A stretch of DNA of 64,000 bases from Candidatus Parcubacteria bacterium (GCA_023130975.1 JAGMAD010000006.1:87187-151186); one strand, 5' to 3'. Counted from the first letter of the stretch, positions 536-45,725 are shown. The notes: a model not told the origin generated them from the sequence alone. Numbers and translations: made by a program.

Positions 536-540
536 ATCGG

Positions 541-582
541 TCATTGGTCATTGGTCATTGGTCATTGGGATTTGAGATTTGA
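541..582. repeat. (TCATTGG)x4 followed by (GATTTGA)x2, spanning the ftsK stop codon
   Basis: Read directly from the sequence. On the minus strand CCAATGA units encode ..NDQ and supply the TGA stop at 557-555. Confidence 0.85.
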
Positions 583-2825
583 TCGTTTTCTCTAATGTAT
601 ACTTCCCTGGGCTTTGCTCCTTCTGCTGGTCCAACCACCCCTCTTTCCTCTAAGGTATCTACCAACCGGGCAGCCCGGGCATAACCAAGCCGCAATCTCC
701 GCTGGAGCAAAGAAGCAGAGGCCTTTTTTGACTCAATAACTATTCTCTTTGCTTCCTCATAAAGAGGATCTTCAGTATAAAAACTTTCTTCTTTTTCCAG
801 GACTTCTTCTAAAGGGCTCACTAAATTGGTCTCTGATATTTTTGAGCTACCTTCAGAAATTTCTTTTTCAACTTTCTCTTTTTCTTCTAAGTCATCGCTT
901 GATGGAGCTTCGCTTTTTTTTAACCAATTACTTACCTTTCTAATTTCTTTTTCGGAAATATAAGCATTCTGAATTCTTCTTGGCTTAACAATTTCGGCAG
1001 AAATAAAGAGCATATCTCCAGCACCCAAAAGTTTTTCTGCCCCAGCCATATCTAAAATGGTCCGTGAATCCACCTGGGAAGCAACCTGAAAAGCAATCCG
1101 ACTGGTAATATTGGCTTTAATAAGACCAGTGATTACTTCTACTGACGGTCTTTGAGTAGCTACAATTAAATGAATGCCTACTGCCCGGGACATCTGGGCT
1201 AAACGGACAATTCCGGCTTCCACATCTCTTCCACGAGCAGCCATTACATCAGCTAATTCATCAATAATCAAAACAATATAAGGCAAAGGTTCTAAAATCT
1301 TTTCTTCTGGTTTGGAATCTTGTGCTTGGGACCTGGAATTTCTGGCTATAATCTCATTATAGCCAGTTATATCTCTTGCCTTTATTTCAGATAAAAGGTC
1401 AAATCTCCTTTCCATTTCTGTAATCAGCCATTTCAAAACATTAACTGTTTTTTGAGGAGTTAAAATCACTGGAGACAGAAAATGAGGTAGGCCGTTATAG
1501 ACGGAAAATTCTACCCTTTTGGGATCAACTAAAATAAATCTTAAACTTTCCGGAGAATTGTGATAAAGCAAACTGATAATAATATTGTTAAGACAAATAG
1601 TTTTTCCACTGCCAGTGCTTCCAGCCACTAAAAGATGGGGCATTTTGCCTAAATCAGCAAAAACCGGATTACCAGCCACATCTCTTCCTAAAGTAAAAAT
1701 GAGTTTAGAAGAAAAATCCTGAAACTCTGGCTGTTCTAATAAATTTCTTAATCCTACTCTGGCCCTGCCTCTATTGGGCAGTTCAATCCCTACCAATGAC
1801 CGGCCAGGAATAGGAGCTTCAATTCTGATGGGATGGGCAGCTAAAGCTAAGGATAAATCACTATTTAAAGCAGTTATTTTTGACAATTTTACTCCTTCTG
1901 CTGGTTTAAAAGTATATTGAGTAACCGTTGGCCCGATATTCACTTCTGACATTTCTACCGCAACATCAAAATTTTGAAGAGTTCTCTTAATGATGGCGGA
2001 ATTGACTTTAGTGTCTCCAGAAGTAGGAGAACCCTCGTCTTTGGCTAATAAATTTAAGGGCGGCGGCTGGTAGATTTCTCCTGGAAAAGCAGCAAAAGAT
2101 TTTGTTTCTAATTTAAAAATAGAAGAATTCTTTCTTTCTCTCTCTGGCATAGAAACTTCAAATTTTTCTTGGACTAACTCAGGTTTAGATTCTTTTTTCT
2201 TTAGAATGCTATTAATTATTGATTTTTCTCCCTCGCCCTCCGGAGCTTTAGCGAAGGAGGGTTCTTTTTCTTTTTCCAAAATTTCTTTCTCTTTTTTGAT
2301 AAGACGAGGACTGATTTGCCAAAGAATCAACCCGCCAATAATAATTACTGCTATGAATATAATAGTTGTCCCTAAAACGCCAAATGCTTTCACCAAAGGA
2401 ACTGATGTTAAATAACCCAGCCATCCTCCTTGTTTTACTTCCTCGTCTAAACTCAAAATTCCAAAAACCCCAGATACGCTTATAATTAAAATAATGATCC
2501 CGAAAAAAATAGCTAATTTATTCTTTTTGGTTTTCATTTCTGGCTCATATTTCTGTTTAAAAAAAACTATGCCTCCTAAAACAAAAAGTAAAGGTAGCAG
2601 AAAAAGCGCCTTGCCAATCAATAAGTCAGAAAGCTCCATAAAAACTCTGCCTGCTTTGCCAAATAAATTAAAGAAAGAAAGAGAGACAATTACTGCTCCG
2701 AAGAACATTAAAACCCCATAGATTTTTCTCTTGGTTTCTTCAAGTAAATCAAGCCGAAAAAGAGGCCTCCTTTTCCTTTCTATCGCGGTTTTTTTATTCT
2801 TTTTGTGTTTCTTTTTTTTAGCCAT
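555..2825 (-). CDS. ftsK: DNA translocase FtsK/SpoIIIE
   Basis: 756-aa ORF with N-terminal TM helices, Walker A GSTGSGKT, Walker B VLIIDELAD and a C-terminal winged-helix gamma domain (LLQRRLRLGYARAARLVDTLEERG). Confidence 0.9.
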   Translation of the reverse strand: MAKKKKHKKNKKTAIERKRRPLFRLDLLEETKRKIYGVLMFFGAVIVSLSFFNLFGKAGRVFMELSDLLIGKALFLLPLLFVLGGIVFFKQKYEPEMKTKKNKLAIFFGIIILIISVSGVFGILSLDEEVKQGGWLGYLTSVPLVKAFGVLGTTIIFIAVIIIGGLILWQISPRLIKKEKEILEKEKEPSFAKAPEGEGEKSIINSILKKKESKPELVQEKFEVSMPERERKNSSIFKLETKSFAAFPGEIYQPPPLNLLAKDEGSPTSGDTKVNSAIIKRTLQNFDVAVEMSEVNIGPTVTQYTFKPAEGVKLSKITALNSDLSLALAAHPIRIEAPIPGRSLVGIELPNRGRARVGLRNLLEQPEFQDFSSKLIFTLGRDVAGNPVFADLGKMPHLLVAGSTGSGKTICLNNIIISLLYHNSPESLRFILVDPKRVEFSVYNGLPHFLSPVILTPQKTVNVLKWLITEMERRFDLLSEIKARDITGYNEIIARNSRSQAQDSKPEEKILEPLPYIVLIIDELADVMAARGRDVEAGIVRLAQMSRAVGIHLIVATQRPSVEVITGLIKANITSRIAFQVASQVDSRTILDMAGAEKLLGAGDMLFISAEIVKPRRIQNAYISEKEIRKVSNWLKKSEAPSSDDLEEKEKVEKEISEGSSKISETNLVSPLEEVLEKEESFYTEDPLYEEAKRIVIESKKASASLLQRRLRLGYARAARLVDTLEERGVVGPAEGAKPREVYIRENDQISNPNDQ

Positions 2826-2967: not shown

Positions 2968-5900
2968 CTATTTCTTAAAGCCTGTGCCGGCCGGGATTAG
3001 TTTGCCGATAATAACATTTTCTTTCAGTCCCTTTAATTTATCTTTTTTGCCCTCTAAAGATGCTTTGATTAAAACTCGTGATGTTTCCTGAAAAGAAGCA
3101 GCAGACAAGAAACTGTCTGTGGTCAAAGACACTTTTGAAATTCCAAGTAAGACCTGCTGGGTCTTGATTGGTTTTTTCCCCTCTTTTTTGAGACGAGCAT
3201 TTTCTTCAGCCACTTCTGCCTGCTCTAAAATTTCTCCTTTAAATAAGAAACTCTCTCCTGGATCTTTAATTTTTAAGCGGGAGAACATCTGGCGGACAAT
3301 GATTTCAATGTGTTTATCATGAATAACTGCTCCTTGGGAAGCGTAAATGTTCTGAATCTCTTTGACAATATAGCGCTGGGTCTCTTTAAGTCCAACTAAT
3401 TTAAATAATTCTCTTAAGTCTAAACTTCCTTCGCAAAGCTGCTCTCCTTTTTCAATATTTTCTCCGACTTTTACCCAGACAGCTCTTTTTCCCGGAAGCT
3501 TGTATTCAACAACTTCAGATTCTTCTTTCTTCGTTTTCAATTTTGGGTTTTGGGATTTGGGATTTGTTTGGGATTTGGGATTTGGGATTTGGGATTTTAC
3601 TCTAATTATCCCTTCTGGCGTTATATCGGTTACTTTCCCATCTACTGAAGAAACTAATGCTTTTCCCGAAGGAACCCGGGATTCAAAAACTTCCTCTACT
3701 CGAGGCAGGCCCTGGGTGATGTCGCCAGCGCTTGCTACTCCGCCAGTATGAAAAGTCCTCATAGTAAGCTGGGTGCCCGGCTCTCCAATGGCCTGGGCAG
3801 CTACAATTCCTACGGCCTGTCCTGTCTTGACTAATTTGTTTTTACCAAGATCCCAGCCATAACATTTTCGGCAAATTCCTCTTTTTGACCTACAGCTCAC
3901 TGGAGAACGGACACTTAATTTTTCAATTCCGGCATCAATAATTTCTTTCGCTTTTTCTTGATTAATAATCTCTTCTGTCTTTACGATAGTTTTGCTTTTG
4001 TCTTTTGATTTAAGACCTGGGACTTTGATATCTTCCAGGGCCACCCTTCCAATAATTTTAAAAAGGAAATCTTGATTGGATTCATCAGCGTCTTTTTTAA
4101 AAACAGTAATTCCTGTTTTATCTTTACAATCTTCCTCTGTTATTATTACTTCATGAGCTACATCAATCAACCGTCTGGTAAGATATCCAGCTGTAGAAGT
4201 TCGCAGAGCAGTATCAGTTGTTCCTTTTCTGGCTCCATGAGTAGAAATAAAATACTCTAAAGCATTAAAACCTTCTTTAAAAGAACTCTTCACCGGCAAT
4301 TCAATAATTTGACCAGCCGGGTTAATGACTAAACCTTTCATACCAGACATCTGAACCGGCTGAGCCCAAGAACCCCTGGCTCCAGAATCAACGATAGAGA
4401 AAACCGAGCCCAAGGGAGGCAGGGCCTGGGGAACCAGTTTTTCTATCTGAGATTTAGTTTTTTGCCAAACCTCAATGGTTTTAGCCACTCTTTCTTCTTT
4501 AGACAACAATCCTTTTTTATAGTGTTTATATATTGTTTCTACATCTTTTTCCGCTTCTTTTACCAGGGTTTTCTTTTCTTTAGGAACAATTAAATCATCC
4601 ATCCCCCAAGTAATACCAGACAAGGTTGAATAATTAAAACCCAAGTCCTTAATTTTATCAAGACAACGTCCAACGGTCTCATTATCGTAGCTTTCAATAA
4701 TATTATTAACTATTTTTTCTATTTTTTTTGCATTCACTCCCTCATTAACAAAAGGATAATTATCCGGAAGAGTTATGTTGAAAAGAATTCTTCCTACCGA
4801 TGTTTCTTTTAATTCTCCTTCTTTGAATCTTACTTTTATTTTCGCCCTTAAATCCACTAAGCCGGTATCTTTAGCTAAAATTGCTTCATTTTTAGAACCG
4901 AATATCTTGCCCTGGCCAAGAGCATCTTCCTTTATTTTAGTAATCCAATAACAGCCAAGAACAATATCCTTATTGGGTGTAGATACCGAGGTTCCGGTAG
5001 CTGGTTTTAATAAATTAACAGTAGAAAGCATCAATTCTCTGGCTTCTTTTTGCGACTCATCTGAAAGAGGTAAATGAACTGCCATCTGGTCTCCGTCAAA
5101 ATCAGCATTAAAGGCGCCGCAAACCAAAGGATGAATTCTAATTGCCTCGCCTTCAATAAGAACAGGTTGGAAGGCCTGAATTCCTAAGCGATGCAAAGTA
5201 GGCGCTCGGTTTAATAAAACCAATTTATCTTTGACAACCTCTTCTAAAATAGCCCAGACATCATCTGTTTCATCTTCAATAAGCCGGCTTGCCCCCCTGA
5301 CATTGTAAGCTAATTCTTTATCTAAAATGCCTTTAATAACAAACGGTTTAAAAAGTTCCAGAGCCATTTTTTTAGGCAAACCACACTGGTTGAGTTTTAA
5401 GTCCGGCCCAACCACAATCACTGACCTGCCGGAATAATCTACTCTTTTTCCTAAAAGATTTTGTCTAAACCTGCCTTGCTTTCCTTTAAGCATATCGGCC
5501 AAGGATTTTAAAAGCCGCTGACCACCGGTAGTTGCCTGAGTCATTGTTCCTTTTCTCATTGTATTATCTATCAAAGCATCTACTGCTTCCTGAAGCATTC
5601 TTTTTTCGTTCCTAACAATAACTTCCGGAGCATTAATTTCTAAAAGATATTTTAAGCGATTATTTCTATTAATTACTCTTCGATAAAGGTCATTTAAATC
5701 AGAAGAAGCATATCTCCCTCCGTCTAACTGAACCATTGGTCTTAAATCCGGAGGCAAAACAGGAAGAACTGTTGAAAACATCCATTCAGGACGGATATCT
5801 GCTTCTAACATTTTTTGGAGCATTCTTAATCTTCTCAAAAATTTTCTCCGCAACAGCAAAGAGCTTTCTTTTTTTTCTCTGGGATCATCTTTTTTTTCTC

Positions 5901-6684
5901 TATCTTTTTCGGAACTATCTATACTGCCTTCTTTTGACTTTATCTTTTGAGGATTAGAGAGCATCAAAGATTTGTATTCTTTCTCCAGTTCTTTCACTAT
6001 TTTCTTTAAATCAATCTCCTCAAAAATTTTTCTTAATGTTTCTGCCCCGGTACCGGCTTTAAAAATTTGGCCATATTTTAGAGAAAGATTATGATAATCA
6101 ATTTCAGAAATAATCTTCAGGGGCTTCAGACCTAAAACTTCCTCTCTTGCCCTATCCTTAGCTATCTTTAACTCTTCTTTTTTAACTTTTAACTTTTCAC
6201 TTTTAACTTTTAACTTTTGTTGGTATTCTTTATCAATTTCCTCTAAGACCTTTTTCTTTGCTTCCTCATCAACTTCTGTAATGATATAGGAAGCGAAATA
6301 TATCACTTTTTCCAACTGCTGGACAGGAATATTTAAAACCGTTCCTATCCTGGAAGGAACTCCTCTTAAAAACCAGATGTGAGAAACCGGACAAGCTAAT
6401 GCTATATGACCCATTCTTTCTCTTCTTACTGATGACTTGGTCACTTCTACTCCACATTTATCGCAAACCACTCCTTTGTAACGAATTCTTTTATACTTTC
6501 CACAATAACATTCATAGTCCTTTTGAGGACCAAAAATTCTCTCGCAAAAAAGACCGTCCTTTTCCGCTCTTTGAGTCCGGTAATTTATTGTTTCTGGTTT
6601 GGTTATCTCACCATGAGACCATTTCAAAATCTCCTCTGGCGAAGCCACTTTTATGATAATTGATTCTAAATCAGCAACATGCAT
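2968..6684 (-). CDS. rpoC: RNA polymerase beta' subunit
   Basis: 1238-aa ORF with the N-terminal Zn-ribbon CxC..C..C and the NADFDGD catalytic motif. Beta'-like along its whole length. Confidence 0.97.
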   Translation of the reverse strand: MHVADLESIIIKVASPEEILKWSHGEITKPETINYRTQRAEKDGLFCERIFGPQKDYECYCGKYKRIRYKGVVCDKCGVEVTKSSVRRERMGHIALACPVSHIWFLRGVPSRIGTVLNIPVQQLEKVIYFASYIITEVDEEAKKKVLEEIDKEYQQKLKVKSEKLKVKKEELKIAKDRAREEVLGLKPLKIISEIDYHNLSLKYGQIFKAGTGAETLRKIFEEIDLKKIVKELEKEYKSLMLSNPQKIKSKEGSIDSSEKDREKKDDPREKKESSLLLRRKFLRRLRMLQKMLEADIRPEWMFSTVLPVLPPDLRPMVQLDGGRYASSDLNDLYRRVINRNNRLKYLLEINAPEVIVRNEKRMLQEAVDALIDNTMRKGTMTQATTGGQRLLKSLADMLKGKQGRFRQNLLGKRVDYSGRSVIVVGPDLKLNQCGLPKKMALELFKPFVIKGILDKELAYNVRGASRLIEDETDDVWAILEEVVKDKLVLLNRAPTLHRLGIQAFQPVLIEGEAIRIHPLVCGAFNADFDGDQMAVHLPLSDESQKEARELMLSTVNLLKPATGTSVSTPNKDIVLGCYWITKIKEDALGQGKIFGSKNEAILAKDTGLVDLRAKIKVRFKEGELKETSVGRILFNITLPDNYPFVNEGVNAKKIEKIVNNIIESYDNETVGRCLDKIKDLGFNYSTLSGITWGMDDLIVPKEKKTLVKEAEKDVETIYKHYKKGLLSKEERVAKTIEVWQKTKSQIEKLVPQALPPLGSVFSIVDSGARGSWAQPVQMSGMKGLVINPAGQIIELPVKSSFKEGFNALEYFISTHGARKGTTDTALRTSTAGYLTRRLIDVAHEVIITEEDCKDKTGITVFKKDADESNQDFLFKIIGRVALEDIKVPGLKSKDKSKTIVKTEEIINQEKAKEIIDAGIEKLSVRSPVSCRSKRGICRKCYGWDLGKNKLVKTGQAVGIVAAQAIGEPGTQLTMRTFHTGGVASAGDITQGLPRVEEVFESRVPSGKALVSSVDGKVTDITPEGIIRVKSQIPNPKSQTNPKSQNPKLKTKKEESEVVEYKLPGKRAVWVKVGENIEKGEQLCEGSLDLRELFKLVGLKETQRYIVKEIQNIYASQGAVIHDKHIEIIVRQMFSRLKIKDPGESFLFKGEILEQAEVAEENARLKKEGKKPIKTQQVLLGISKVSLTTDSFLSAASFQETSRVLIKASLEGKKDKLKGLKENVIIGKLIPAGTGFKK
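3541..3597. repeat. GGGATTT heptamer array inside rpoC
   Basis: Sequence is ttttgggttttgggatttgggatttgtttgggatttgggatttgggatttgggatttt. The minus-strand frame reads VKSQIPNPKSQTNPKSQNPK. Confidence 0.9.
6179..6219. repeat. AACTTTT/CACTTTT heptamer array inside rpoC
   Basis: Sequence is ttttaacttttaacttttcacttttaacttttaactttt. It encodes QQKLKVKSEKLKVKK in the rpoC frame and uses the same words as the intergenic tracts at 480-535 and 15253-15287. Confidence 0.85.
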
Positions 6685-6787
6685 AGTAATTAATTTTTAA
6701 TTTTGTAATTTTTAAATAATTTTTAATGTCTAAATTTTTAAACAAGAATAGAAAAAACAAAAAAGTTTAAAAATTAAAAATTAGGAT

Positions 6788-6835
6788 TTAATTACGAAGT
6801 AATCAAGGTTCTTGAACAAAGCGAAAGGTTCTTAT
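6788..6835 (+). repeat. 48-nt element, copy A (TTACGAAGTAA and CAAGGTTCTTG palindromes) in the rpoB-rpoC spacer
   Basis: Copy A is ttaattacgaagtaatcaaggttcttgaacaaagcgaaaggttcttat. Copy B at 44173-44221 shares 28 identical nt, then a 5-6 nt variable patch, then 15 identical nt. Confidence 0.85.
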
Positions 6836-6867
6836 TTATAAAATTAAAAATTAGAAAATTAGAAATT

Positions 6868-15164: not shown

Positions 15165-15244
15165 AAAATAGTTGGGAACTATTCTACCTGCCCCGTTGAA
15201 ATTACGAAGTAATTTCTTTACGGGGTCCGTTGAATTACGAGGGC
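15165..15244 (-). pseudogene. tRNA-Arg 5'-half remnant interrupted by a 35-nt palindromic hairpin
   Basis: The minus strand reads GCCCTCGTAATTCAACGGA-[CCCCGTAAAGAAATTACTTCGTAATTTCAACGGGG]-CAGGTAGAATAGTTCC.. and has no T-arm or 3' acceptor. The 19-nt 5' end differs by 1 nt from the tRNA-Arg(TCT) gene at 16516-16587. Confidence 0.5.
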
Positions 15245-15252
15245 AATATTTC

Positions 15253-15287
15253 AACTTTTAACTTTTCACTTTTCACTTTTCACTTTT
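15253..15287. repeat. (AACTTTT)x2 (CACTTTT)x3 heptamer array
   Basis: Read directly from the sequence. Intergenic, upstream of the htrA-like gene. Confidence 0.85.
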
Positions 15288-15346
15288 ACGATAGCATATC
15301 TTTTTCTTGTTGACAATTATATTTTGTGCTACACTAATTATGTATT

Positions 15347-16966: not shown

Positions 16967-17527
16967 CTACTTCGTGTAGACCTTTATCATCAAATCAGCC
17001 CAAACATCTCCTTCTACATTATCGTGAGACCTAAATTCTTTCTCTTTTTCAGATAATTTCCTTATATTTAAATTAGAAATTTCAATAAGATAAGGAGCGG
17101 TTTCTATCTTTTCCAAGAATTTCAGAATATTAGGAAATGAACCGTTAAGAGATAATTGATAATTGCTAAAATTCCATTTTTCTGATTCTGCTTTTTTAGA
17201 AAAAGTAGCGGATATTTCAATCGCCAAAAAAGAATCTTTTGCCTTTTCTTCTAAAAACTCAATAAACTCAATAGGGGTTTCTCGATTAATAAACAAATTA
17301 TCAATTCTTTTTAGTTCTTCTTGACGGCTCTGATAAAAATCTCTTAATTGATTAAAATTCTCTTTCCTGAGCTGCAGTTCAGCAAAATTATTTTTTTGAA
17401 GTATAAAATCTTGGGAATCTTTTTTAATATCAGTCAAAAGAGGACAAATAATAAGAAATATAAAAATTAAAATGACTAAAGCAAAAAATACTAAAGATGT
17501 ATAAATTTTTTTATTTAGAGGCATCAT
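16967..17527 (-). CDS. pilO: PilO-like type IV pilus assembly protein
   Basis: 186-aa ORF with an N-terminal TM helix then a coiled coil. Its position after pilM-pilN and the 4-nt overlap with pilN support the call. Confidence 0.5.
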   Translation of the reverse strand: MMPLNKKIYTSLVFFALVILIFIFLIICPLLTDIKKDSQDFILQKNNFAELQLRKENFNQLRDFYQSRQEELKRIDNLFINRETPIEFIEFLEEKAKDSFLAIEISATFSKKAESEKWNFSNYQLSLNGSFPNILKFLEKIETAPYLIEISNLNIRKLSEKEKEFRSHDNVEGDVWADLMIKVYTK

Positions 17528-22404: not shown

Positions 22405-22523
22405 AAATGTCTAATATCTAATTGATCTAATGTCTAATCAATGTCTAATTCCAAAATGCCTAATGCCTAAAATTTTAATTATTTAGTCATTGGGATTTGG
22501 GATTTGATTAGAAATTAGAAATT
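22405..22523. repeat. Intergenic heptamer-word tract (TGTCTAA/TGCCTAA, TCATTGG, GATTTGG, TTAGAAA)
   Basis: The tract reads aaatgtctaatatctaattgatctaatgtctaatcaatgtctaattccaaaatgcctaatgcctaa ... tcattgggatttgggatttgattagaaattagaaatttt. Confidence 0.8.
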
Positions 22524-23776: not shown

Positions 23777-23874
23777 AATTTCTAATTTCTAATTTCTATT
23801 AAATTTCTAATTCTTTAATTTTTAATTGAAAATTTTGGAATTGAAAATTCAATGAAAATTGAAAATTGAAAATT
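23777..23874. repeat. Intergenic heptamer tract: (AATTTCT)x3 ... (GAAAATT)x3
   Basis: Read directly from the sequence. It lies in the divergent region between pilC and rpsT. Confidence 0.85.
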
Positions 23875-29396: not shown

Positions 29397-30311
29397 TTAT
29401 GGCAGCCGCTCTGTCAAGCTGTAAAAATTATATTCTTTCAACATTTCAACAATCTTTTCTTTCCTCTTCGGCTCAAGGGAAGGCGGTTTCCATTGGCACT
29501 TTTCTAAATTAAAATCTATATCAGCGTCCATACGCGCTTTTGCCAAGTCATAAGATAAAAACACCTGGTCTTTGTAGTCCAGCAAAATCTCTTTAACCTT
29601 CGGCTTCAAATCCCAAGCCTCTCCTTTTTCTATGGCTTTATAAAGCTCGGTAATACTGCCGTATTCTTGAAGCAGTTCAGCCGCTCTCTTCTTACCAATG
29701 CCAGTGGCGCCCGGAATATTGTCAGAAGGATCGCCGGCCAAGGCCTTAAAATCAACTACCTGTTTTGGCAAAATCCCGAACCGCTCTTTTACTTTTTCCT
29801 CATCATAAATAACTGTTTCTTTTATACCCTTGCCCAAGGCATAAACCTTGACATTTTTATTCACCAGTTGGAGAGCATCTAAATCACCTGTAAGAATATA
29901 AATCTCAATCTCTGGCCCCCCACCACTTTTAGGATAAAAGTGGTGGGGGGTTTGGGCTATTTTAGCAATAGTAGCAATCAAATCATCTGCCTCAAATTCT
30001 TGTTTTTCAAAAAGGGGAATATTAAAACTTTTTAAAATTTCCTTTATTTTAGGAATTTGGGCATAAAGTTCTTCTGGCGCCTTTGGTCTCTTTGCCTTGT
30101 AGCCAGTAAACATTTTTTGCCGAAAGCTTGGTGCCGGAAAATCAAAACAGGCAGCAATATAGTTTGGTTTTAAGTCCTTTAAGGTTTTTAAAAAAACTAA
30201 TAAAAAGCCATAGACCGCATTAACCAAGACACCTTTTTTTGTTGTTAATGGAGGCAAGGCATGATAAGCCCGATGAACTAAAGCATTACTGTCAATAATT
30301 ACCAATTTCAT
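29397..30311 (-). CDS. 5'-3' exonuclease (FEN / Pol I N-terminal-domain family)
   Basis: Starts MKLVIIDSNALVHRAYHAL and contains ..EADDLIATIAK..ILTGDLDALQLV..GIGKKRAAELL. The ATG at 30311 is preferred over the TTG at 30320. Confidence 0.85.
   Translation of the reverse strand: MKLVIIDSNALVHRAYHALPPLTTKKGVLVNAVYGFLLVFLKTLKDLKPNYIAACFDFPAPSFRQKMFTGYKAKRPKAPEELYAQIPKIKEILKSFNIPLFEKQEFEADDLIATIAKIAQTPHHFYPKSGGGPEIEIYILTGDLDALQLVNKNVKVYALGKGIKETVIYDEEKVKERFGILPKQVVDFKALAGDPSDNIPGATGIGKKRAAELLQEYGSITELYKAIEKGEAWDLKPKVKEILLDYKDQVFLSYDLAKARMDADIDFNLEKCQWKPPSLEPKRKEKIVEMLKEYNFYSLTERLP
29916..29950. repeat. GC-rich palindromic element (family 2) inserted in-frame in the exonuclease gene
   Basis: Sequence is CCCCCCACCACTTTT-aggat-AAAAGTGGTGGGGGG. 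The arms are identical to those of the hairpin at 45551-45585. It encodes ..TPHHFYPKSGGGP... Confidence 0.85.
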
Positions 30312-30323
30312 AATCACCAATGA

Positions 30324-30357: not shown

Positions 30358-32673
30358 TTATTCGCGCAACTCCCTTATTTTGTCTCTCACATCCTCATTA
30401 TCCGGATTCAATTCTAAAACTTTTTCAAACTCAGCAATCGCCTTTGCCTTTTCTCCTTTTGAGCTATAAGCCACTCCAAGAGAGTAATGGGCATTGGAAT
30501 GATTTGGCACCAAATCAACCACCCTCTCAAATTGAGAAATTGCCTCGTTTACCCTGTCTTGATTAAAATAAAGCCGTCCAAGCTGAAAAAGAACTTCTGT
30601 ATTAAGAGGAAAAGAACCTGCCAAACCCTCTAATTTAGCAATCGCGCCAGCAATATTTTCTTCTCTTTCCTCCATTAGGACTATTTGAAGCGAAGCACCA
30701 ATATAGTTGCTTTTCAGCTCTTCCCCTTTTCTAAATGATTCTCTTGCTTCATTATTTTTCTCTGAACCCAAATAGATCTTTCCTAATTCAGTATAAAGAA
30801 TAGGATTATTTGGCTCTAACTCAATAGCTCTATTAAAGGATTTTTCCGCCCATTCCAGAGAGCCGGTAACCATGCCTCTGATATCCCGATAGATAACTCC
30901 TAATGTTTCCCAAGCCACTACGCTGTTGGGACTGATTTCCGAAGCCATTTTTGCTTCATCAAGGCATTTTTTTATCTTCTCCTGGGCTAAAACCACATTT
31001 TGCTTTTCTCCGGGCTTCATTGCTTCAGCCAAAACCTCACTCAGGTAAAAACGGGCTAAAACTACTCTATACTGGCTGAAATGAGGATTTAATCTCTTTG
31101 CTTCTTCCAGCAAATCAGTATTTACAGCTATGCCTGTTTGTACTGCCTGGCTATACTTCATATCAGCCCGATAGAACTTCTGGCCAAAATAAAAGCTGCC
31201 CAATATCCCTAAGCCGAAGATAATTAAGCAAGATGTCAGCACCAAGCTCATCTCTGGAAAATTCTCAAAAGAAACTTTTTTCTCTTTGACTGGCGACTGC
31301 CAGGAAACCACTGCTATTGCTAAAACCAGCCAGAAAGTAAATGCTAAAGTAGTATTCTGATAATAAAGCAGCTGCCCTATAAACAAAGCCAAAAAAGTCA
31401 TTAACAAAGGCATTGTTAAATTATTTGAGATTTGGGATTTAATACTCTTCAAGAAAACCAGAGAAATCAGCAAAAAAAATCCGATAATACTCAAATAAGC
31501 CAGCATCCCCAATATCCCTATAGTGCTTAATATTTCTACAATATGGCTTCCCGGACGGTCAAACCTAATTTGCCAAAAACGGCTCTCATTAAATTCAACT
31601 GGCTTTTGCATGGAAAAATCGTGAAAGAAAGTGCCTATTCCTGAACCTATGGCTCCGTTTTTCAGATTATCAGTGACAGTGTTAAATCCAATCTTCCAAG
31701 AAGTCCCTTGGTCTAAAACTTCTTCTTTGACCAGGGGCCCGGTTTTCAATCCTTCCTGCATTACGCCTGAAAAATCAGCATTTAAACCAACCACAGCAAT
31801 AATAATAAAAAATATCGGCACTAAGAGGCGATTAACGTTTTCTTTAAATATCCTTGCTGTCAAAGCCATTGCTAAAAACAAAACCAAAGTTATAAGCAAA
31901 ACCAACCAAGCTGAAGAAAAATCAACAATAAGCAAAATCCCCAAACCAAGAATTAACAAAAGCCAAATCTTTATCTGCTTTAATCCCTTTAAAGAGCAAA
32001 GAAGCAAGCCAATACTTAAAACCGTTAATACCGCAACAAACATTGCCAATGCCTCTAAACTGCCGGCTATCGGATTAAATGTTTTTGGCGACATTATTTG
32101 AGACAATGATAAATTATTAGTAATCAATGATATTTTGCCCCAAACCCCTAAAATTGACAAATAACTTATTAACATTACAAAAAACCCAGAAGCCAAAAAC
32201 GCTTTCAACAACCTCTGAACACTAATCAATGATGAATTATCAATATTCCCTTTATCTTTCAACTTTGAACTTTTAACTGTAACTTTTAACTTCTCCAGAT
32301 TTAATCCTCCATTATTCGTTATCAAAAAATAAAGCGCTCCCAATGACAACAAGCCAATCAATCCATCACTGAATTTTCCATAAAAACCAAATAAACTGGA
32401 CATTTTATCCACTGAGAAAATAGCTGAAAAAACAGCTATTACTAAAAATGCCAAAATCGGCAAGTCCAATGGTGTCCGTCTGAACCGTATTTCTTTATCA
32501 ACAACAACCATCTTTGCCAGCCAGGCAAAAAGAGCAATGCTGACCAAGAAAGACAATAAATACTGCTTGTTAATTTCAAATGCCTCAAAACTAAAAGGCA
32601 GAAAAAATAAAGGCAGCAGAAAAACAAGCGAATAAATGCTTCCTCTTAAAATACGATTCAATACATTTGACAT
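30358..32673 (-). CDS. O-antigen-ligase (Wzy_C)-like polytopic membrane protein with C-terminal TPR repeats
   Basis: About 12 TM helices, then TPR-like repeats (..AHYSLGVAYSSKGEKAKAIAEFEKVLELNPDN). The ATG at 32673 (MSNVLNRIL) is preferred over the track start at 32721. The family call rests on architecture only. Confidence 0.55.
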   Translation of the reverse strand: MSNVLNRILRGSIYSLVFLLPLFFLPFSFEAFEINKQYLLSFLVSIALFAWLAKMVVVDKEIRFRRTPLDLPILAFLVIAVFSAIFSVDKMSSLFGFYGKFSDGLIGLLSLGALYFLITNNGGLNLEKLKVTVKSSKLKDKGNIDNSSLISVQRLLKAFLASGFFVMLISYLSILGVWGKISLITNNLSLSQIMSPKTFNPIAGSLEALAMFVAVLTVLSIGLLLCSLKGLKQIKIWLLLILGLGILLIVDFSSAWLVLLITLVLFLAMALTARIFKENVNRLLVPIFFIIIAVVGLNADFSGVMQEGLKTGPLVKEEVLDQGTSWKIGFNTVTDNLKNGAIGSGIGTFFHDFSMQKPVEFNESRFWQIRFDRPGSHIVEILSTIGILGMLAYLSIIGFFLLISLVFLKSIKSQISNNLTMPLLMTFLALFIGQLLYYQNTTLAFTFWLVLAIAVVSWQSPVKEKKVSFENFPEMSLVLTSCLIIFGLGILGSFYFGQKFYRADMKYSQAVQTGIAVNTDLLEEAKRLNPHFSQYRVVLARFYLSEVLAEAMKPGEKQNVVLAQEKIKKCLDEAKMASEISPNSVVAWETLGVIYRDIRGMVTGSLEWAEKSFNRAIELEPNNPILYTELGKIYLGSEKNNEARESFRKGEELKSNYIGASLQIVLMEEREENIAGAIAKLEGLAGSFPLNTEVLFQLGRLYFNQDRVNEAISQFERVVDLVPNHSNAHYSLGVAYSSKGEKAKAIAEFEKVLELNPDNEDVRDKIRELRE

Positions 32674-36383: not shown

Positions 36384-36460
36384 AGTTGGTTTAATTTTAA
36401 ATGATAAATTATTAAAAGTTCAAACAAAAAACAAAAAAATACAAGTTAAATATTAAATTC

Positions 36461-36509
36461 CAATGACCAAATCCCAATGCCCAACCAAATCATAAATCCT
36501 AAATCCCAA
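36461..36509. repeat. Intergenic 7-nt periodic tract (CCAATGA CCAAATC CCAATGC CCAACCA AATCATA AATCCTA AATCCCA)
   Basis: Read directly from the sequence. Confidence 0.8.
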
Positions 36510-36902
36510 TTATTTCTTTGTATTAGAATTGCGGATTATGGCAGCTAAAATCAAATTTAATTCCTGTGCTTCTTTCCATAAGATTCTTATTTCATCTCTA
36601 AATTGAGGAAAAGTGTGAGCAATTATTCGCAACCAGTATTTTGTCTCTTTTGTTTCTTTCTTAGCAATAGCAATTTTGTTCAAAAAATCCTTTTTAGAAT
36701 TGGCTTCATCTGCTTCACTATAATTTGCTCCTATGCTGGTTCCAGACCTTACCAATTGATTTATTAAAGGTTTAGTGATTGAATTCTGCGGAAGCTTTCT
36801 CAAAAAATCAACAATATCCTTACTAAACTTTATAGTTCTTTCCTCAAGGTCGTATTTTTGTTTGGGATTTATTGAATTGGGATTTGATTGGTCATTGGTC
36901 AT
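36510..36902 (-). CDS. Four-helix-bundle protein (23S rRNA IVS protein / Avd-like family)
   Basis: Contains ..LINQLVRSGTSIGANYSEADEANSKKDFLNKIAIAKKETKETKYWLRII... The probable start is the ATG at 36902 (MTNDQSNPNSINPKQKYDLEER), and the track start is 36974. Confidence 0.7.
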   Translation of the reverse strand: MTNDQSNPNSINPKQKYDLEERTIKFSKDIVDFLRKLPQNSITKPLINQLVRSGTSIGANYSEADEANSKKDFLNKIAIAKKETKETKYWLRIIAHTFPQFRDEIRILWKEAQELNLILAAIIRNSNTKK

Positions 36903-36972
36903 TGGGATTTGGGGCTTAAATAAATAAGTTTTGGCTTTTTTGTTTTGTGTTTTGGATTTGCATAGATTAGAC

Positions 36973-37014
36973 ATTGAAAATTCATTGATAATTGGTCATT
37001 GAAAATTGAAAATT
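36973..37014. repeat. Six heptamers ending in ATT (ATTGAAA ATTCATT GATAATT GGTCATT GAAAATT GAAAATT)
   Basis: Read directly from the sequence. The tract runs up to the stop codon of the 2162-aa gene. Confidence 0.8.
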
Positions 37015-40000
37015 TATTCTTCCGGGGGTGGTCCTTCAGCTGGTGGTTCTTCAGGTGGAACATAGGTTCCGAGTGCTTCTTGCTCTTCTGTTGGTTTTTC
37101 GTCGTCAATCCCGCAATCGCTCAAATCAGTGCAAGTCCGGGTTTGGGTAAAGGGCTCTTCGCTGGCAACTGTTTCTGGCAAAGGCGACCATTCGATGCAG
37201 AACCAATCAGGGATACAGACAGGCGGCTCCGGCTCAGGTTCAGGTTCCGGTTCAACACCATCTTCTGGCGACGTGGTTGTGTCAACTGGAGGAATATCTA
37301 AGATATCTGGAACATCTGGTGGGACATTTGGTTCGCTCCCTTCGGGAGCGGCTGGCTCAGGCGACTGACCATCAGTCACCAATAATTGATCATTGATCTC
37401 TGGACAAGGGCCTTGTTCCTTAACCCATTCGCCGTTTTCAATCCAGGTACACCAGATTTCGCCAGTGGTTTTATCCTGCATCTCAATTTGTTCAGCCACT
37501 ACTGTTTTTGCCTTTAATTTTTGGACTTCTAAAGTGCCGTATTCACTGACAATTAAGCCGAGAGGAAAGAGATTATTGATAATTGATAATTGGTCATCAT
37601 TGAGAATATTACCCTCCTCGTCAGTGATAACTGCCAAGTCATAACCCTGCCAGCTGACATTAACCAGGGTCATTACCTTGCCGATTTCGCTTTCCATTTC
37701 TACGCAATTTTTAACTTTTATATCGCTTCTCCCTTGTTCTTCGTTTTTAATAAAGCTGATTTCACAATTAGTTACTGTGCCGTCAAACGGCTCAAATGCC
37801 CGGCCAATAATTCTGCCAGCGCCAGTGGCTTTCATTGCCACGCCTGGCGACGAAGAAGAAGTCAGGAAATCGCCGATTTCAACAGGCCCATTTTCCAGAT
37901 TAACTTTGACCGGCACTCGACCGATTAAAGAAACCGGTCGGGTTTTAGCTATAACCTCGCCTGCATCAGTGCTAATTTCGCCATAGCCGCCGCCCAGAGT
38001 AGTGGATGGCTGGCTGGCAATCACTCCCACTAAATTAGAATCGTAAGCCGAAGCAGATTTTTCAACAAAGTATTTTGACTCATCAGTGATTTCTTCAATG
38101 GCATTGGTTTTGAGAATAGAAACAACATCGCCTGGCTCAACTGACAGGTCAAAAGTATAATAACTTTCAGCAATATCAGCGCCGCTGTCAGCATGAGTAA
38201 TTTCCAGCCAATTACTACCGTCATAAACAAGCACAGCAGTATCTTGAGTGTTATCCAAAGTAAGATGGCCGCTTAACTGAAGATTTCCAGTAGCGTCTTT
38301 CAAGACCACGCTCCGGTCAGTATGTTCTGCCCGAAGCACTAAAATATCGCCTTCGCTTCCGCCATTGATAGTATCTAAATCATCAGTAGCACCATCGCTT
38401 TCAGTGTCAATCTTATGGTAGGTCTGGGTTGCTGTAACCACCCCTGAAGCAATAGTTAATTCTGTAGCACCAGCGAAGTTTGCCATAGCAATCTCGGAGA
38501 TATCTCCGCCCGTGGCATTAGAGGAAGGCAGAGTACCATTAGTAGTATCGCTGCAGTCATCAGCATAATGGGTGGTCGGCGCAACAATGGCAATGCCGTC
38601 AGCCACGGCTGACGCGGTTTCGCCAGCTGACATAGAAGAAACTCTTCGGTAAAGTTTATAAGAAGTGGCGCCAGGAACCGCACTCCAGGTAACAGTGACT
38701 TTTTCGTCGTCACTATCGCCTGACATTGCCTGGGAGCCCTCTGCGGAAATAGTGGTCTCGCCATTGTCATTTAAAGCAGTGACCCGGTAATAATATGTGC
38801 CGCTACTGGAGCAGGAACCGCCGCTGGCAGTGATGCTGGTAGCAGGCGTGCCGGTCTGGGAAATATCCAGTTTGTTAATAGTAATATTGCCGCCAGTTAA
38901 AGTTAAATTCTGCTTAACTGTTAAGTCGCTGCCGCCGCTTCCAGTGCCGCCAACAGCCACATCGCCGTCAGGTCCGACCATAAACGCGTAGCCGCCGCCA
39001 TCCATACCCAAGACCTTAAACCCGCCGTAGACCAAATCGCTATGCTGAACATTCACCAGAACATCACCGCCTTTGGCATAAGCTAAGTGATAAATAGAGT
39101 TGGCTGCCGGGTCGCCCAAAGTAGCATCCCAGTCAGCCACAGTAATTGTATTATTTGCATTGTCAGTAATTGTTTGGGTCTGGCCCTTGCCAGTTCCGGC
39201 AATAATGGAAATACTGCCGTTAATCCATTCGTCAGCGGTCCAGGATTTATTACTGTCAGTTAAAACAGGATCAGAGAAAGAAGTACATATCCCGGAATCA
39301 CCAGTTGCTTCATTGGAACGGGTAGTCAGGGTTAAGTTTTCTGGATGATTGGGATCGCCGGCAGAAATAGTCAAATTCCCCTGGGAAGTAATATATGATG
39401 TGCCTGTACTTAAGAAAGCCAGGTCATAGTCAATGCCGACATCACCGCCGACATCAACACTCAATGGCCTGCTAAGCACAATATTCGGGTTGCCGATTTC
39501 AATCATTGTTGTCAGGGAACCGCCTGAAGCTGTTTTGAAAAGCATCTTGCCCGTGTAATTTGTATTGTCAATGTTGGTAATAGCTGATTCAATTGCGCCA
39601 ATTATTGTGGCGCCGCCAGTTGTTCTGTTGACAACCATATTTATTTTTGTTCCAGAAGCAACAGTGGCAGTGCCTAAATTTTCTATCCGCAAACCAGCTG
39701 TCACTGCGCCAGCAGAATCAGTTCGAACTGTTAACTTATCAGTCGGCGCCGTTGTACCAATCCCGACATCACCGGCAACAACAATCAAGCCGTAATTAGT
39801 AGTGGCACCGCTGGCAGAAAAGTAGCCAGCAATGTTGGTAGAAGTTGTGCCAGTGTTGGCAACTGAAGAATATAATCCATAAGTAGTATGAGAAGCATTG
39901 GTATTGGCGCCGGAGCGGGCAAGATTGAGAAGTTTTGAGGTCCCACTTGCTCCTCCGGCAGTAGAACTGGAAGTAATATCTAAACCAGTGCCTGTTGTCA

Positions 40001-43000
40001 AACCATCAACTGAAAGAGCTATTCCAGTGCCAGTGGTAATTGAATCACCAGTTAATTCAAGAAGCCCTGTAGTATCATTGGAAACAACATCAAGTTTGTA
40101 ATCTGGGCTGGTGGTGCCGATGCCCAGGTTGCCGCCAAAATAGGCGTCTCCGCTGCCGGAGATGTTGCCGGCGCTGAATAAACCCCCAGAACCGATATTA
40201 ACCCCACCGCTAATCTGGAGTTGGCCCTGAGCGATAATGTCATTTCTTACCTGCAGATTTCCTGCCTCTAAGCTGTGCACCACTCCTGATGTAGCCTCTA
40301 TTCCTGAGACATCGATTACCTTAAGGTCATCGCTGTCCACATCAACCACATAGGCATATCTACCTGAGACATAGACAGAGTAAGGGCCAGTGCCAATGGC
40401 TAAACTCCCGGCTAAGCTGGGTGAAGTCGGGTCTGAGACATCGATTACCTTAAGGTCATCGCTGCCAAGATCAACCACATAGGCATATCTGCCCGAGACA
40501 TAAACAGAGCGAGGCAGAGTGCCAATACCTAAGCTCCCGGCTAAGCTGGGTGAAGTGGGGTCTGAGACATCGATTACCTTAAGGTCATCGCTGTCAGAAT
40601 CAACCACATAGGCATATCTGCCTGAGACATAAACAGAGTAAGGGTCAGTGCCAATGGCTAAACTCCCGGCTAAGCTGGGTGAAGTCGGGTCTGAGACATC
40701 GATTACCTTAAGGTCATCGCTGATAGAATCAACCACATAAGCATATCTGCCTGAGACATAGACAGATATAGGGGCAAGGCCAATGCCCAAACTCCCGGCT
40801 AAGCTGGGTGAAGTCGGGTCTGAGACATCGATTACCTTAAGGTCATCGCTGACAGCATCAACCACATAGGCATATCTGCCCGAGACATAAACAGAGCGAG
40901 GCAGAGTGCCAATACCTAAACTCCCGGCTAAGCTGGGTGAAGTCGGGTCTGAGACATCGATTACCTTAAGGTCATAGCTGATAGAATCAACCACATAAGC
41001 ATATCTGCCTGAGACATAGACAGAGTAAGGGTAACTGCCAATGCCCAAACTCCCGGCTAAGCTGGGTGAAGTGGGGTCTGAGACATCGATTACCTTAAGA
41101 TCATTGCTGCTAATATCAACCACATAGGCATATCTGCCCGAGACATAGATAGAATAAGGGCCAGTGCCAATGCCCAAACTCCCGGCTAAAACAGGGTCTG
41201 CGGGTAATTGAAGGAAATTGCCTTTCTCAATAGTCAATTTCTCACTTGGGCTGGTGGTGCCGATGCCGACATTAGCATTAAGTATGTTAATCTCATCTGT
41301 TGCTTGATTGTCAAACTCTATTCTTCCAGCGCTTCCACCCAATCCAATCCAGGCATCATCTGGCATAACAATATTTCCGCTTGATGATATTGACAATGCT
41401 CCAGCTGTTATAGTTCCAGTTGTTGTTAAATTCTCATCGTCAAAAGATATGTCGCCGCCAGTGGCAGTAAAAGTTAAATCACCGCTGCTGTCCACTGCCA
41501 CAGAAAGATAATTAGAAGCGTCATAGGCGACAGTGAGTTGAGGAGTGCTTGTTGAAGTGATTGTTGTTTGGCCGCCATTAGCAATAACAAAGTTGTCTGT
41601 GCCATCGGTTTGGAAACGAGCAATATTGCCTGTACCTTGCTGATCTACCCGCAAGCCGTCTGATGAAGAAGTTGCTGTAAAAACAGCAGAGCCGGAATAG
41701 GTCTGGGCGCCGCTAACAGTAAGGTCGCCGCCGACAGTAACATTACCGTCTGTTTCAACTGTAAAGTTAGTGTCGCCAACAGTTAGGTCAGCACCAGTAA
41801 CATCCAAGCCAGCAGTAGCATCAACATTTCCGCCAAGTGTAATCTGGCCTGTTGATTGAGTCAAAGTATTATTGATGGTCACTGGTCCGCTAAAAGTAGA
41901 AGTGGCAGCCACGGTTAATTTATCAGAAGTTTCTCCGCCTAAGACAGTATCGTCGCCAACTCCTAAATCATGAACAGCAGCAGAACCAGAAACGCCTAAG
42001 GAAGCAAAAGTGCCATGTCCGCCAACCTGAACTCCTTGCGAACCAATATATATTGGAGCGCTGGAAACAACTGTTTGAGGAGGAGTGGCTTGAAGTTTTT
42101 TAGTAATTTTTTGGAGGGTTTCTATATCAGCTTCCCAACCAGTGATTTCAGCTAATTGGGTTTTGAATTCAGCCAATGATTCCTCGTCAAGAACTTTTAA
42201 TTCTTTAGTGATTTCTTTGATGGGTTCTATTTGGGTAATTTTTTGAATCTCTTTGATAATTTCTTTTTGAGGCAGACCTTCTCTTTCCATTTTTTCAATC
42301 CTTGCCTGAAGGATTTCTAATTCTTGTTTTAACTCCTCATCTATTTTTTCTTTTTCAGCAACGATTTTCTTTTCTGTCCTCCCCCCCCAAGGAGAAACGA
42401 GAAACTCGTATGCTTTAACAAACGGACTTTTGATTGCCTGATATGTCTGGCTTAATTTTTGTTCTATCGCATCATTGGTATTTTGATATCCTTGTTTGAA
42501 AGTAATGCCTGTCTTGACTATTTTCTGGCCAATGTTTGACGGTGCTTCTTTTATTATTTTACCTACAACAACGGCCTGTTCTCCATACCATTGGCTAAAT
42601 CTTTGAAAAACATTAATGCCGTATTTGAGGTCGTCGCCTGTCTCGCCAGTTACCTCGGCTAAAAAGGAGTAAGTACTCTTACTTGTTGACAAAATACTTG
42701 CTCCTAAATCATAAAAGTAATTTTTTGTTTCTGCCTTTAATTTGTCTGACTCTATTATTACTTTTTTCCTCCATTTATTTAATGATCTATTCATTTCTGC
42801 TAAAAATTGACTGAGAAATGTTTTTGAATTTGCTAAAGAGGTATCTATTACTGTTTTTGAGTTTATCACAGAACTGCCTATTATTGTTGTTAATTCATCC
42901 AAAACATTGTCAGCTTTTTGAGAGACAACCGATAGTCCTTTGGAGCTAATGCCGGCAACAAAACTCATTGTTTGTTTGAAATCCTGAACCGGATGCAAAT

Positions 43001-44066: not shown

Positions 44067-44130
44067 ATTGACTATATTGATGATTTAAGTTAATTTGAAA
44101 TAATACTTAGTTAGCTTACTGACTATTTTT

Positions 44131-44221
44131 TTGCGAAGCAAAAAATCAAGGTTCTTGCCAAAGGCAAGGTTCTTAATTACGAAGTAATCAAGGTTCTTGA
44201 GCGATAGCGAAAGGTTCTTAT
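44131..44221 (+). repeat. Array of TT(A/G)CGAAG(T/C)AA and (C/A)AAGGTTCTT motifs, including copy B of the 48-nt element (44173-44221)
   Basis: Sequence is ttgcgaagcaa aaaatcaaggttcttg ccaaaggcaaggttctt aattacgaagtaatcaaggttcttgagcgatagcgaaaggttcttat. AAGGTTCTT occurs four times here and twice at 6806-6832. Confidence 0.85.
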
Positions 44222-45719: not shown

Positions 45720-45725
45720 ACCTTA

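Follow-up and report, generated by a model that had tools for sequence, protein, structure and literature searches.

How can tandem repeats of seven nucleotides, in which slippage by a single unit shifts the reading frame, come to lie inside genes such as rpoC, tsaE and yebC and even to supply the stop codon of ftsK? The question is raised by a 64 kb stretch of DNA (the window; G+C ~36%) from a metagenome-assembled genome (MAG) of Candidatus Parcubacteria (Minisyncoccales), a member of the candidate phyla radiation (CPR). The heptanucleotide arrays of the window are simple-sequence repeats (SSRs), resembling the short tandemly repeated repetitive (STRR) sequences of cyanobacteria, and represent a genome-wide mutational feature of this Parcubacteria lineage. 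They most probably arise (at a probability of roughly 0.7) when 7-nt units are duplicated in tandem and slip at the site itself, with selection acting as a filter. This reading draws on the statistics and locations of the arrays, on the differing units found in the same loops of relatives and on the match between units and local codons, from which we infer slippage and a selection filter.

Period-7 excess in spacers and genes

Arrays were detected with Tandem Repeats Finder (TRF) and with scans for exact tandem runs, and the chance level in coding sequence (CDS) was taken from codon shuffles. At period 7 the window holds 45 exact tandem runs of at least 14 nt; periods 8 and 9 yield only 3 apiece, and TRF returns 38 period-7 arrays with units arranged head-to-tail. 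Within CDS, 23 period-7 runs of at least 14 nt were observed vs 4.3 ± 2.0 in the shuffles, 9 of at least 17 nt vs 0.17 expected, and 2 of at least 21 nt vs 0 expected; periods 5, 6, 8, and 9, unlike period 7, stay at chance level. The 5.56 kb of spacers contain 22 runs of at least 14 nt vs 0.84 expected, so that array density is ~4/kb in spacers vs 0.39/kb in CDS, a ~10-fold difference, though CDS is enriched nonetheless. Many spacers consist of little besides successive degenerate heptamer arrays.

More than 25 unit types occur within the 64 kb, and each locus is homogeneous for its own (AAATCCC in rpoC, AAATCCG in yebC, AAATCCA in tsaE). Perfect runs in genes reach at most 31 nt (4.4 units) and are hosted by rpoC, tsaE, yebC, and ruvC, at relative positions 0.11-0.83. 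An A-rich sense strand and a peptide rich in K, S, Q, N, P, and I characterize 12 of the 14 TRF period-7 arrays that lie wholly within genes; the thirteenth (17151-17169) has A and T in about equal amounts, and the array at 45802-45834 is the sole in-gene array with a clearly T-rich sense strand. A repeated residue is encoded by the same codon each time, often a rare one (TCC is 13% of Ser codons, CCC 16% of Pro, ATC 15% of Ile), and because array codons are the rarer ones for their amino acids, the periodicity is primarily one of nucleotides. Units free of stop codons make up 15 of 22 in-gene arrays, whereas both strands contain stops in 11 of 23 spacer arrays; these counts were dropped as independent evidence, since an open reading frame (ORF) has no stops by definition. 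Array density varies between 0 and 1.14/kb over 80 rpoC loci of Parcubacteria; at 0.70 the window is near the top, and the trait is therefore patchy within the clade.

Arrays within conserved genes

Gene identities rest on NCBIfam profile assignment, which likewise placed rpoB in the window. The genes and the arrays that they carry are as follows.

555-2825, minus strand: ftsK
2968-6684, minus strand: rpoC, unsplit, 1238 aa
30358-32721, minus strand: TPR/membrane protein gene
36510-36974, minus strand: four-helix-bundle (4HB) protein gene
43608-44066, minus strand: tsaE
47022-47759, plus strand: yebC

539-582, minus strand: array at the 3' end of ftsK, AAATCTC, AAATCCC, then (CCAATGA)x4.3 at 539-568
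3541-3597, minus strand: rpoC array 1, (AAATCCC)n, including AAAC as a 4-nt partial unit and AAAACCC as a variant; translation VKSQIPNPKSQTNPKSQNPK, listed as KSQIPNPKSQTNPKSQNPK
6167-6218, minus strand: rpoC array 2, AAAAGTT/AAAAGTG units forming a 21-nt higher-order repeat in 2.5 copies; 6180-6218 encodes QKLKVKSEKLKVKK
32251-32292, minus strand: array in the TPR/membrane gene, AAAAGTT-type with TCA and ACA variants; translation EKLKVTVKSSKLK, listed as KLKVTVKSSKLKDK
36887-36910, minus strand: array at the 4HB N-terminus, AAATCCC + (CCAATGA)x2.7, with an in-frame ATG at 36900-36902 that gives MTNDQ
43810-43853, minus strand: tsaE array, AAATTCC/AAATCCA/AAAATCC/AATATCY units; translation KFQIQNPKSNIQ, listed as KFQIQNPKSNIQYLI
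45802-45834, plus strand: array in the LTD-domain protein gene, TTTTTGT-type, in the hydrophobic N-terminal segment LLFLFVGFLFFG
47448-47481 (exact run 47453-47481), plus strand: yebC array, (AAATCCG)x4.7, encoding EIPKSEIRNPKF
47815-47846, plus strand: ruvC array, AAAGCGA-type units, encoding KAKNLKRKAK

An earlier note on this DNA had quoted peptides for most of these arrays, and translation reproduced all of its peptides and arrays. The yebC array is present as it had said, but the coordinates that it gave (47464-47491) lie ~10-16 nt off; the ruvC array was absent from its list. When the proteins were aligned with relatives and solved structures, the array segments proved lineage-variable: all internal arrays fall in alignment gaps or hypervariable segments and the remainder at gene ends, in line with the earlier proposal that arrays are tolerated only in surface loops.

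The two rpoC arrays occupy such variable sites. Array 1 lies directly after the trigger-loop helices, between 'IIRVKS' and 'VVEYKLPGK' in the jaw region of beta', and includes an exact 18-nt (6-codon) tandem duplication at 3549-3584 composed of 7+7+4 nt. The loop that holds it has 36 residues here vs ~15 in Thermus beta' (1282-1298), and its length among 52 Parcubacteria ranges from 6 to 38 aa; taking the jaw of E. coli beta' to be residues 1149-1190, we assume this loop to be the jaw hairpin. Array 2 lies in an N-terminal insertion, a segment that the beta' of B. subtilis and C. difficile lacks and that is hypervariable in the clade. Every third unit of this array is AAAAGTG, at precisely the position where an unbroken series of AAAAGTT would give TAA. 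The suggestion that three 7-nt units equal one 7-aa peptide repeat holds for this second tract but not for the first, which shows 7-, 6-, and 5-aa periods and partial units. Insertion in multiples of three units, also put forward, fits the 21-nt repeat at 6167-6218 but neither the 18-nt duplication in array 1 nor yebC, where there is no net length change, and was ruled out by these two cases as a general rule.

RpoC carries a further charged, low-complexity insertion of ~35-40 aa at residues ~238-275 (~5860-5975), SLMLSNPQKIKSKEGSIDSSEKDREKKDDPREKKESS. Its full form occurs only in the three closest relatives (P0002-P0004, where P00xx labels denote RpoC protein relatives); it is shorter in P0005-P0007, and P0064 has an unrelated insert at this position.

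The remaining internal arrays follow the same pattern of placement. Compared with H. influenzae YjeE (1htw), TsaE gains 5 aa from its array, in a loop that is presumably the turn of a beta-hairpin, and the RuvC array adds 6 aa relative to E. coli RuvC (1hjr). In the TPR protein, the array lies in a hydrophilic segment, a loop between membrane helices, that follows the conserved hydrophobic motif LYFLITNN and is 6-27 aa shorter in eight relatives, and it contains a stop-avoiding change to TCA, as rpoC array 2 avoids a stop. The array-coded loop of YebC exceeds that of three bacterial YebC proteins with solved structures by 4-7 aa. Because its length equals that of Parcubacterial relatives (e.g., L091 and L093, where L0xx and L1xx labels denote Parcubacteria comparison loci or contigs), whose sequences there are different, the array overwrote a variable loop with no net addition.

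Arrays at gene ends

Array sequence overlaps the stop codons of ftsK and of the ORFs at 16967-17527, 52166-53335, and 37014-43502. Translation confirmed the earlier observation that CCAATGA units encode both the last residues and the TGA stop of ftsK: the protein ends in ...NDQISNPNDQ, of which the final codons (ISNPNDQ) and the TGA (555-557), which is what the third frame of CCAATGA reads, are array sequence, and three more array units follow beyond the stop. Past the conserved end of the gamma domain (GAKPREVY), the FtsK tails of relatives measure 4-45 aa and are unrelated in sequence.

At the 4HB gene, the array is followed by degenerate units and together they add ~10 aa ahead of the conserved KYDLEER. 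The array had been said to supply the ATG of this gene, and an in-frame ATG (MTNDQ) does lie inside it, but the start most likely predates the array: the orthologue in L036 begins ATG ACC AAT AAC AAA TAT (MTNNKYNLEER), where the window reads CCA ATG ACC AAT GAC CAA ... KYDLEER. Because the L036 orthologue already starts MTN, the array gave no new start; judged from this alignment, it most likely grew out of the orthologous start, ATGACCAAT, and made the N-terminus ~10 aa longer. Three competing annotations exist for the 4HB start, at 36974 (ORF list, 154 aa), at 36902, and at an ATA codon at 36872 (NCBI, 120 aa).

Different units in the same loops of relatives

The closest RpoC relatives carry the labels Nealsonbacteria or Minisyncoccales, and a strong lag-7 signal is present in the RpoC jaw loop of 6-7 of 50 lineages. 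The loop contains AAATCCG x3 in L030 (88% RpoC identity), AAACCCC/AAAACCC in L023, AAATCCA/AAATGTC in L010 and L006, (ACAATTG)n + (AAAGTCA)n in L019, and AGAATTA in L018. Between the window and L030, the orthologous arrays differ at the same position of every unit (C vs G), as homogenization within an array predicts.

The units also resemble the sequence from which they would have grown. RpoC jaw arrays start at conserved Lys-Ser (or Lys-Pro) codons, and the array-less L005 reads AAA TCC CAA ACC there, which amounts to ~1.4 units of AAATCCC. At the conserved K-F-Q of TsaE, the window has AAA TTC CAA and an AAATTCC/AAATCCA array, while L087 and L100 have AAG TTT CAA and carry (AAGTTTC)x4 in the same loop. 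In the YebC loop, the heptamers of relatives are AATTTCC in L088 and CGAATTN in L091. That the unit follows each lineage's own synonymous codons at the site favors a local origin.

Spacer arrays and shared unit families

The spacers hold the following arrays, to which no strand was assigned.

398-530: ftsK-recA spacer, (AAAAGTT/G)n then inverted (AACTTTT)n, forming a long AU-rich hairpin (z = -4.4)
6690-6867: rpoB-rpoC spacer, AAAAATT- and AAAATTA-type arrays
15249-15288: intergenic, (AAAAGTG)x3-(AAAAGTT)x2, ~85 nt from tRNA-Arg
22406-22523: spacer made up almost entirely of successive arrays of AATGTCT, AATGCCT, AAATCCC, AAATTAG
23777-23874: spacer, AAATTAG x3, AAAATTG x3
36422-36509: spacer downstream of the 4HB gene, AATGACC/AAATCCC/AAATCCT units
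52150-52172: spacer between convergent genes, (TGTTACG)x3.3, overlapping the stop of 52166-53335 (minus strand)
55025-55069: intergenic, (AACACAT)x3.6, (TTGTTTT)x2

No classical terminator was detected in the ftsK-recA spacer at 398-530. Several unit families recur among loci of the window, AAATCCN at no fewer than 6 loci (at least 6), AAAAGTK at 5, and AATGACC at 3. Around arrays that share a unit, no common flanks or element ends were found in the window; only further heptamers are common, array lengths and ends differ, and no terminal repeats or target-site duplications are visible.

Origin of the arrays

Under local duplication and slippage, a 7-nt stretch already present at a site would be duplicated in tandem, and the array would expand or contract through out-of-register realignment in replication or repair. 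In spacers, arrays would build up almost freely, to the ~4/kb seen, and in genes selection would remove nearly all events. Surviving in-gene arrays would be those that keep the frame with a net 3n nt (21-nt three-unit blocks, the 18-nt 7+7+4 arrangement, or equal-length overwriting), that avoid an in-frame stop through stop-free units (AAATCCN) or a point variant where the stop would fall, that code a hydrophilic peptide rich in K, S, Q, N, and P, and that sit in a length-variable surface loop or at a gene end. Arrays at gene ends may rewrite a C-terminal tail together with its stop, as in ftsK, or extend an N-terminus, as in the 4HB gene, and interruption by a variant unit, as in rpoC array 2, adds stability.

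Two arguments of the earlier note against such an origin are not supported. It had called for an insertion mechanism and not local slippage, but units follow local synonymous codons (in TsaE, at the RpoC Lys-Ser codons, and at the 4HB ATGACCAAT start). It had also held that slippage in essential genes would be lethal and the arrays therefore in need of stabilization. This paradox is weak, as perfect runs do not exceed 4.4 units and frameshift mutants would simply be lost, with no special stabilization required; at such low copy numbers slippage is rare.

Several observations weigh against local slippage as the whole account. Slippage itself was not directly observed, and the mechanism does not explain why the period is 7 over 6 or 8. 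Copy-number variants at the arrays were absent among consensus contigs of three or four samples, and the length variants that the earlier note had proposed to seek in population data did not appear in assembly contigs or in 90%-identity protein clusters (of one or two members each). One further contig, L165 (sample SAMN18200505), aligns to window positions 44751-48100 with ~85% identity upstream and 100% identity from ~nt 300 of yebC onward, and is uninformative on the yebC array because it is identical to the window there; the switch appears to mark either a point of recombination between two strains or an assembly chimera. The rpoC array at 6180-6218 is 100% identical over 36 nt in L033, vs only 62% matching among same-amino-acid codons gene-wide, so that array 2 is old and stable and not visibly slipping. 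Finally, one 13-mer, AAATCCCAATGAC, in which an AATGACC unit adjoins an AAATCCC unit, is repeated exactly at 561-573, 22486-22498, and 36898-36910 (the ftsK end, a spacer, and the 4HB start), three loci that are all gene boundaries; two copies with one mismatch exist besides (also at 36455-36481), and the arrays at the ftsK end and 4HB start have 24 identical nt in common. Arrays of AAATCCN, AAAAGTT, AAATTAG, AAAATTG, and AATGACC also recur in other Parcubacteria loci, and L036, at an RpoC identity of only 68%, has a cluster AAATCCC...AATGACC downstream of its ftsK. Shared unit families and the 13-mer are not predicted by purely independent local seeding; the presence of the same units at many loci is also an unexplained hallmark of cyanobacterial STRRs.

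These shared sequences speak for dispersal, in which ready-made arrays or short composite seeds would be spread by insertion, copying, or gene conversion, with selection keeping the in-frame cases in loops. Besides the 13-mer, the 24-nt stretch, and the unit families common to other Parcubacteria genomes, small mobile-looking elements land in frame in the same loops in the clade (a ~37-nt GACTCCCCGNAGGGTTGCA element and the hairpin of an exonuclease gene, both described below). Dispersal is nevertheless unlikely, as the units at a site track the lineage's own synonymous codons, more than 25 distinct units coexist in the 64 kb, flanks share heptamers alone without terminal repeats or target duplications, and the yebC array swaps loop sequence without net insertion.

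The arrays might instead be functional DNA or RNA elements under selection, such as a G-quadruplex (G4) on the rpoC template strand, protein-binding, terminator, or promoter elements, or phase-variation loci. The template strand of rpoC 3541-3597 reads (GGGATTT)n, with 8 GGG tracts in two blocks of four separated by 4-nt loops, and fits the canonical G4 pattern. Several window arrays have about four units, the number preferred by the GGGNATC repeats of Xanthomonas and Nostoc, which form G4 in vitro (PMC4692102); a stable fold is also formed by the inverted AAAAGTT arrays that follow ftsK, and the rpoC 6180-6218 array is conserved beyond synonymous sites. A functional role of this kind is nonetheless improbable. 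Four or more G3 tracts at 7-nt spacing occur only in rpoC 3541-3597, the array at 22490-22506 has 2, and the other unit types have no G3; most units, among them AAAAGTT, AATGACC, AAATTAG, AAAATTG, and AAATCCG, are thus incapable of forming G4, which was ruled out as a general explanation. Lineages also differ in the units that they carry at the same site, on/off switching of rpoC or tsaE is not viable, perfect runs have at most 4.4 units, and neither assemblies nor protein clusters show alleles that are out of frame or of another length.

Selection of peptide repeats (KSQxxNP, KLKVKSE) at the protein level, with nucleotide periodicity as a by-product, is very improbable and largely refuted. 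NPKS-like motifs do recur in the RpoC loop of several lineages, and QKLKVKSEKLKV is common to the window, P0005, P0006, and L033. Identical units lie in non-coding DNA, however, each repeated residue has one, often rare, codon, and at these sites other lineages show either an unrelated peptide or no insertion at all. Conservation of the peptides with different codons, which the earlier note had named as the observation that would make the nucleotide periodicity secondary, was looked for and not found: peptides differ or are absent, and the sole shared one uses in L033 identical, not varied, codons. That an assembly or sequencing artefact is at work, repeats being a classic source of assembly error, can be dismissed, because contigs of three further samples match the window at 99.985-100% identity over 5-10.7 kb, arrays included, while long ORFs of conserved proteins stay intact across arrays and similar arrays occur in many independent MAGs.

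Comparison with known repeat systems

In many prokaryotes no class of long SSR is more abundant than the heptanucleotides, for which slippage related to the polymerase has been suggested (Mrazek, 2007, as summarized in PMC4679880; PMC4692102). SSRs in coding regions concentrate at termini and in indel-tolerant regions (PMC3315296). The closest parallel is provided by cyanobacterial STRRs and long SSRs, which share with the window arrays tandem 7-nt units, several families per genome, a mainly intergenic location, and units at many loci. They share as well a hundreds-fold excess specific to period 7 and an unexplained origin for which polymerase slippage has been proposed (PMC4679880; PMC4692102). 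Here, in contrast, the host is a tiny-genome CPR bacterium and a visible fraction of arrays lies in frame in core genes, and the copy-number polymorphism that is the basis of STRR fingerprinting is not seen among assembly contigs. Mazel and colleagues reportedly described in 1990 an STRR2 of sequence TTGGTCA, of whose reverse complement the CCAATGA of the window is a rotation, and an STRR1-type AATCCCC that lies one base from AAATCCC; Elhai and colleagues are said to have found in 2008 small elements nested in cyanobacterial heptamer repeats.

Other systems resemble the window in part. The 49 elements of Geobacter metallireducens, in each of which the heptanucleotide GGACCGG stands four times in tandem, are located 'within genes ... 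as well as between genes' (PMC2700814), yet these form one GC-rich family, matched genome-wide by BLAST and read as regulatory, whereas the window has many AT-rich units that track local sequence. The GGGNATC heptamers of Xanthomonas and Nostoc come in about four units near ORF ends, sometimes over stop codons (PMC4692102); rpoC array 1 and 22490-22506 (GGGATTT) are alike in unit, and most window units, lacking G tracts, are not. Tandem repeats of Borgs are likewise local, within ORFs, and translated into hydrophilic, disorder-prone peptides, with partial units at their edges read as seeds and slippage discussed (PMC9879509). In-gene Borg units are, however, all divisible by three (PMC9879509), while the frame is kept here by three-unit blocks, partial units, or compensation of 7-nt units. 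The TAACTGA heptamer of Beggiatoaceae, cyanobacteria, and Bacteroidetes occurs in 2-6 or more copies at many loci, with a patchy phylogeny and no known spreading mechanism (PMC4679880); unlike the window arrays, it is a single unit placed almost entirely just upstream of start codons.

Phase-variable contingency loci also have non-triplet units in ORFs, where slippage by one unit shifts the frame. Such loci have long perfect tracts, usually near the 5' end of a surface or restriction gene that is dispensable, and their populations contain on and off alleles. The tracts of the window are instead short, interrupted, and located in essential genes, with no variant alleles in assemblies or protein clusters, and none is a long perfect 5' tract in a dispensable surface gene. 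The arrays are thus a source of small lineage-specific insertions and most likely not phase-variation switches. Nor do they have the defined ends, terminal inverted repeat or hairpin, and target duplication of a miniature mobile element; hairpin elements that fit this description exist nearby, separate from the arrays.

Hairpin elements and other features nearby

Two families of small elements were seen in coding loops. The first is a ~37-nt dispersed element, CTGGAC-(variable hairpin)-GACTCCCCGNAGGGTTGCA, which lies in frame, often right after a heptamer array, and encodes the peptide motif TPRRVA. Copies are located in L030 (13166-13201), L006 (5144-5179 and 1860-1877), L022 (10500-10564), and L088 (589-625), at both rpoC variable sites (L030, L006, L022) and in the yebC loop (L088); the element was sought in the window and is absent from it. 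The second, palindromic AATCCGCCAGCTGGCGGAGAAAAAG (peptide NPPAGGEK), is found in the RpoC jaw loop of L033 (~13100) and at the recA starts of L033, L010, and L009, and would be a second small element that lands in coding loops and termini.

Within the window, a GC-rich hairpin, CCCCCCACCAC-loop-GTGGTGGGGGG, lies in frame at 29916-29950 in a 5'-3' exonuclease gene (29397-30320, minus strand) and encodes QTPHHFYPKSGGGP. Its arms are identical to those of an intergenic hairpin at 45551-45585, which is missing from L165 as a clean 33-nt indel, and the pair looks like a tiny mobile palindromic element. Hairpin arms GTTGACCCCCACACCAAACGA / TGGTGTGGGGGTTGAC occur in two copies, one at 45754-45798, which cannot be aligned in L165 and extends over the start that the ORF list gives for the LTD-protein gene, and one at 48296-48367, after ruvC. 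The spacer between the genes for a type II secretion system (T2SS) ATPase and the LTD protein holds, at 45590-45717 on the plus strand, 130 nt with a long and very stable fold (-61.3 kcal/mol, z = -8.5). No Rfam family reaches its gathering threshold there, and the portion covered by the alignment with L165 (85% identity) is largely conserved. An Rfam scan of the whole window returned four tRNAs and nothing else.

The sequence ATTACGAAGTAAT stands beside one to three copies of CAAGGTTCTT in three spacers: 6791-6813 (rpoB-rpoC), 15201-15213 (next to tRNA-Arg), and 44147-44198 (between the divergent tsaE and T2SS-ATPase genes). At ~44067-44196, gene strand shifts from mostly minus to mostly plus and the cumulative GC skew has its minimum (~44 kb), which may be either a replication-origin-like switch or a mere coding-strand effect. 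A 129-nt unit is repeated 6.9 times (89% matches) at 40304-41189, within the 2162-aa ORF at 37014-43502, with a G+C of ~47%, above the remainder of the window.

Significance

Heptanucleotide repeats have been known since 1990, and neither their origin nor their 7-nt period is understood. Literature searches for heptamer repeats in CPR/Patescibacteria found no report. Arrays in universally conserved genes differ from those in spacers in that the ancestral sequence, frame, and structure are known. For each lineage one can therefore reconstruct how an array was born, in which register it was seeded, and how it grew and decayed. A practical warning also follows for annotation, as gene starts and ends beside arrays are unreliable (the three starts of the 4HB gene, and the tail and stop of FtsK).

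A more far-reaching but tentative and unlikely idea is that Parcubacteria may share with heterocystous cyanobacteria a specific process that generates or spreads heptamers, whether a property of the replisome or of repair or a dedicated enzyme, and that it acts alongside tiny hairpin elements landing within or beside the arrays. If so, this process and the hairpins would keep adding new peptides to the same permissive loops of RpoC, RecA, YebC, TsaE, RuvC, and the 5'-3' exonuclease, the shared families AAATCCN and AATGACC and the exact 13-mer would be its signature, and a non-triplet repeat machinery would account for a large share of the lineage-specific insertions in CPR core proteins. The arrays themselves provide a concrete mutational source for many small lineage-specific insertions in the core proteins of CPR bacteria.

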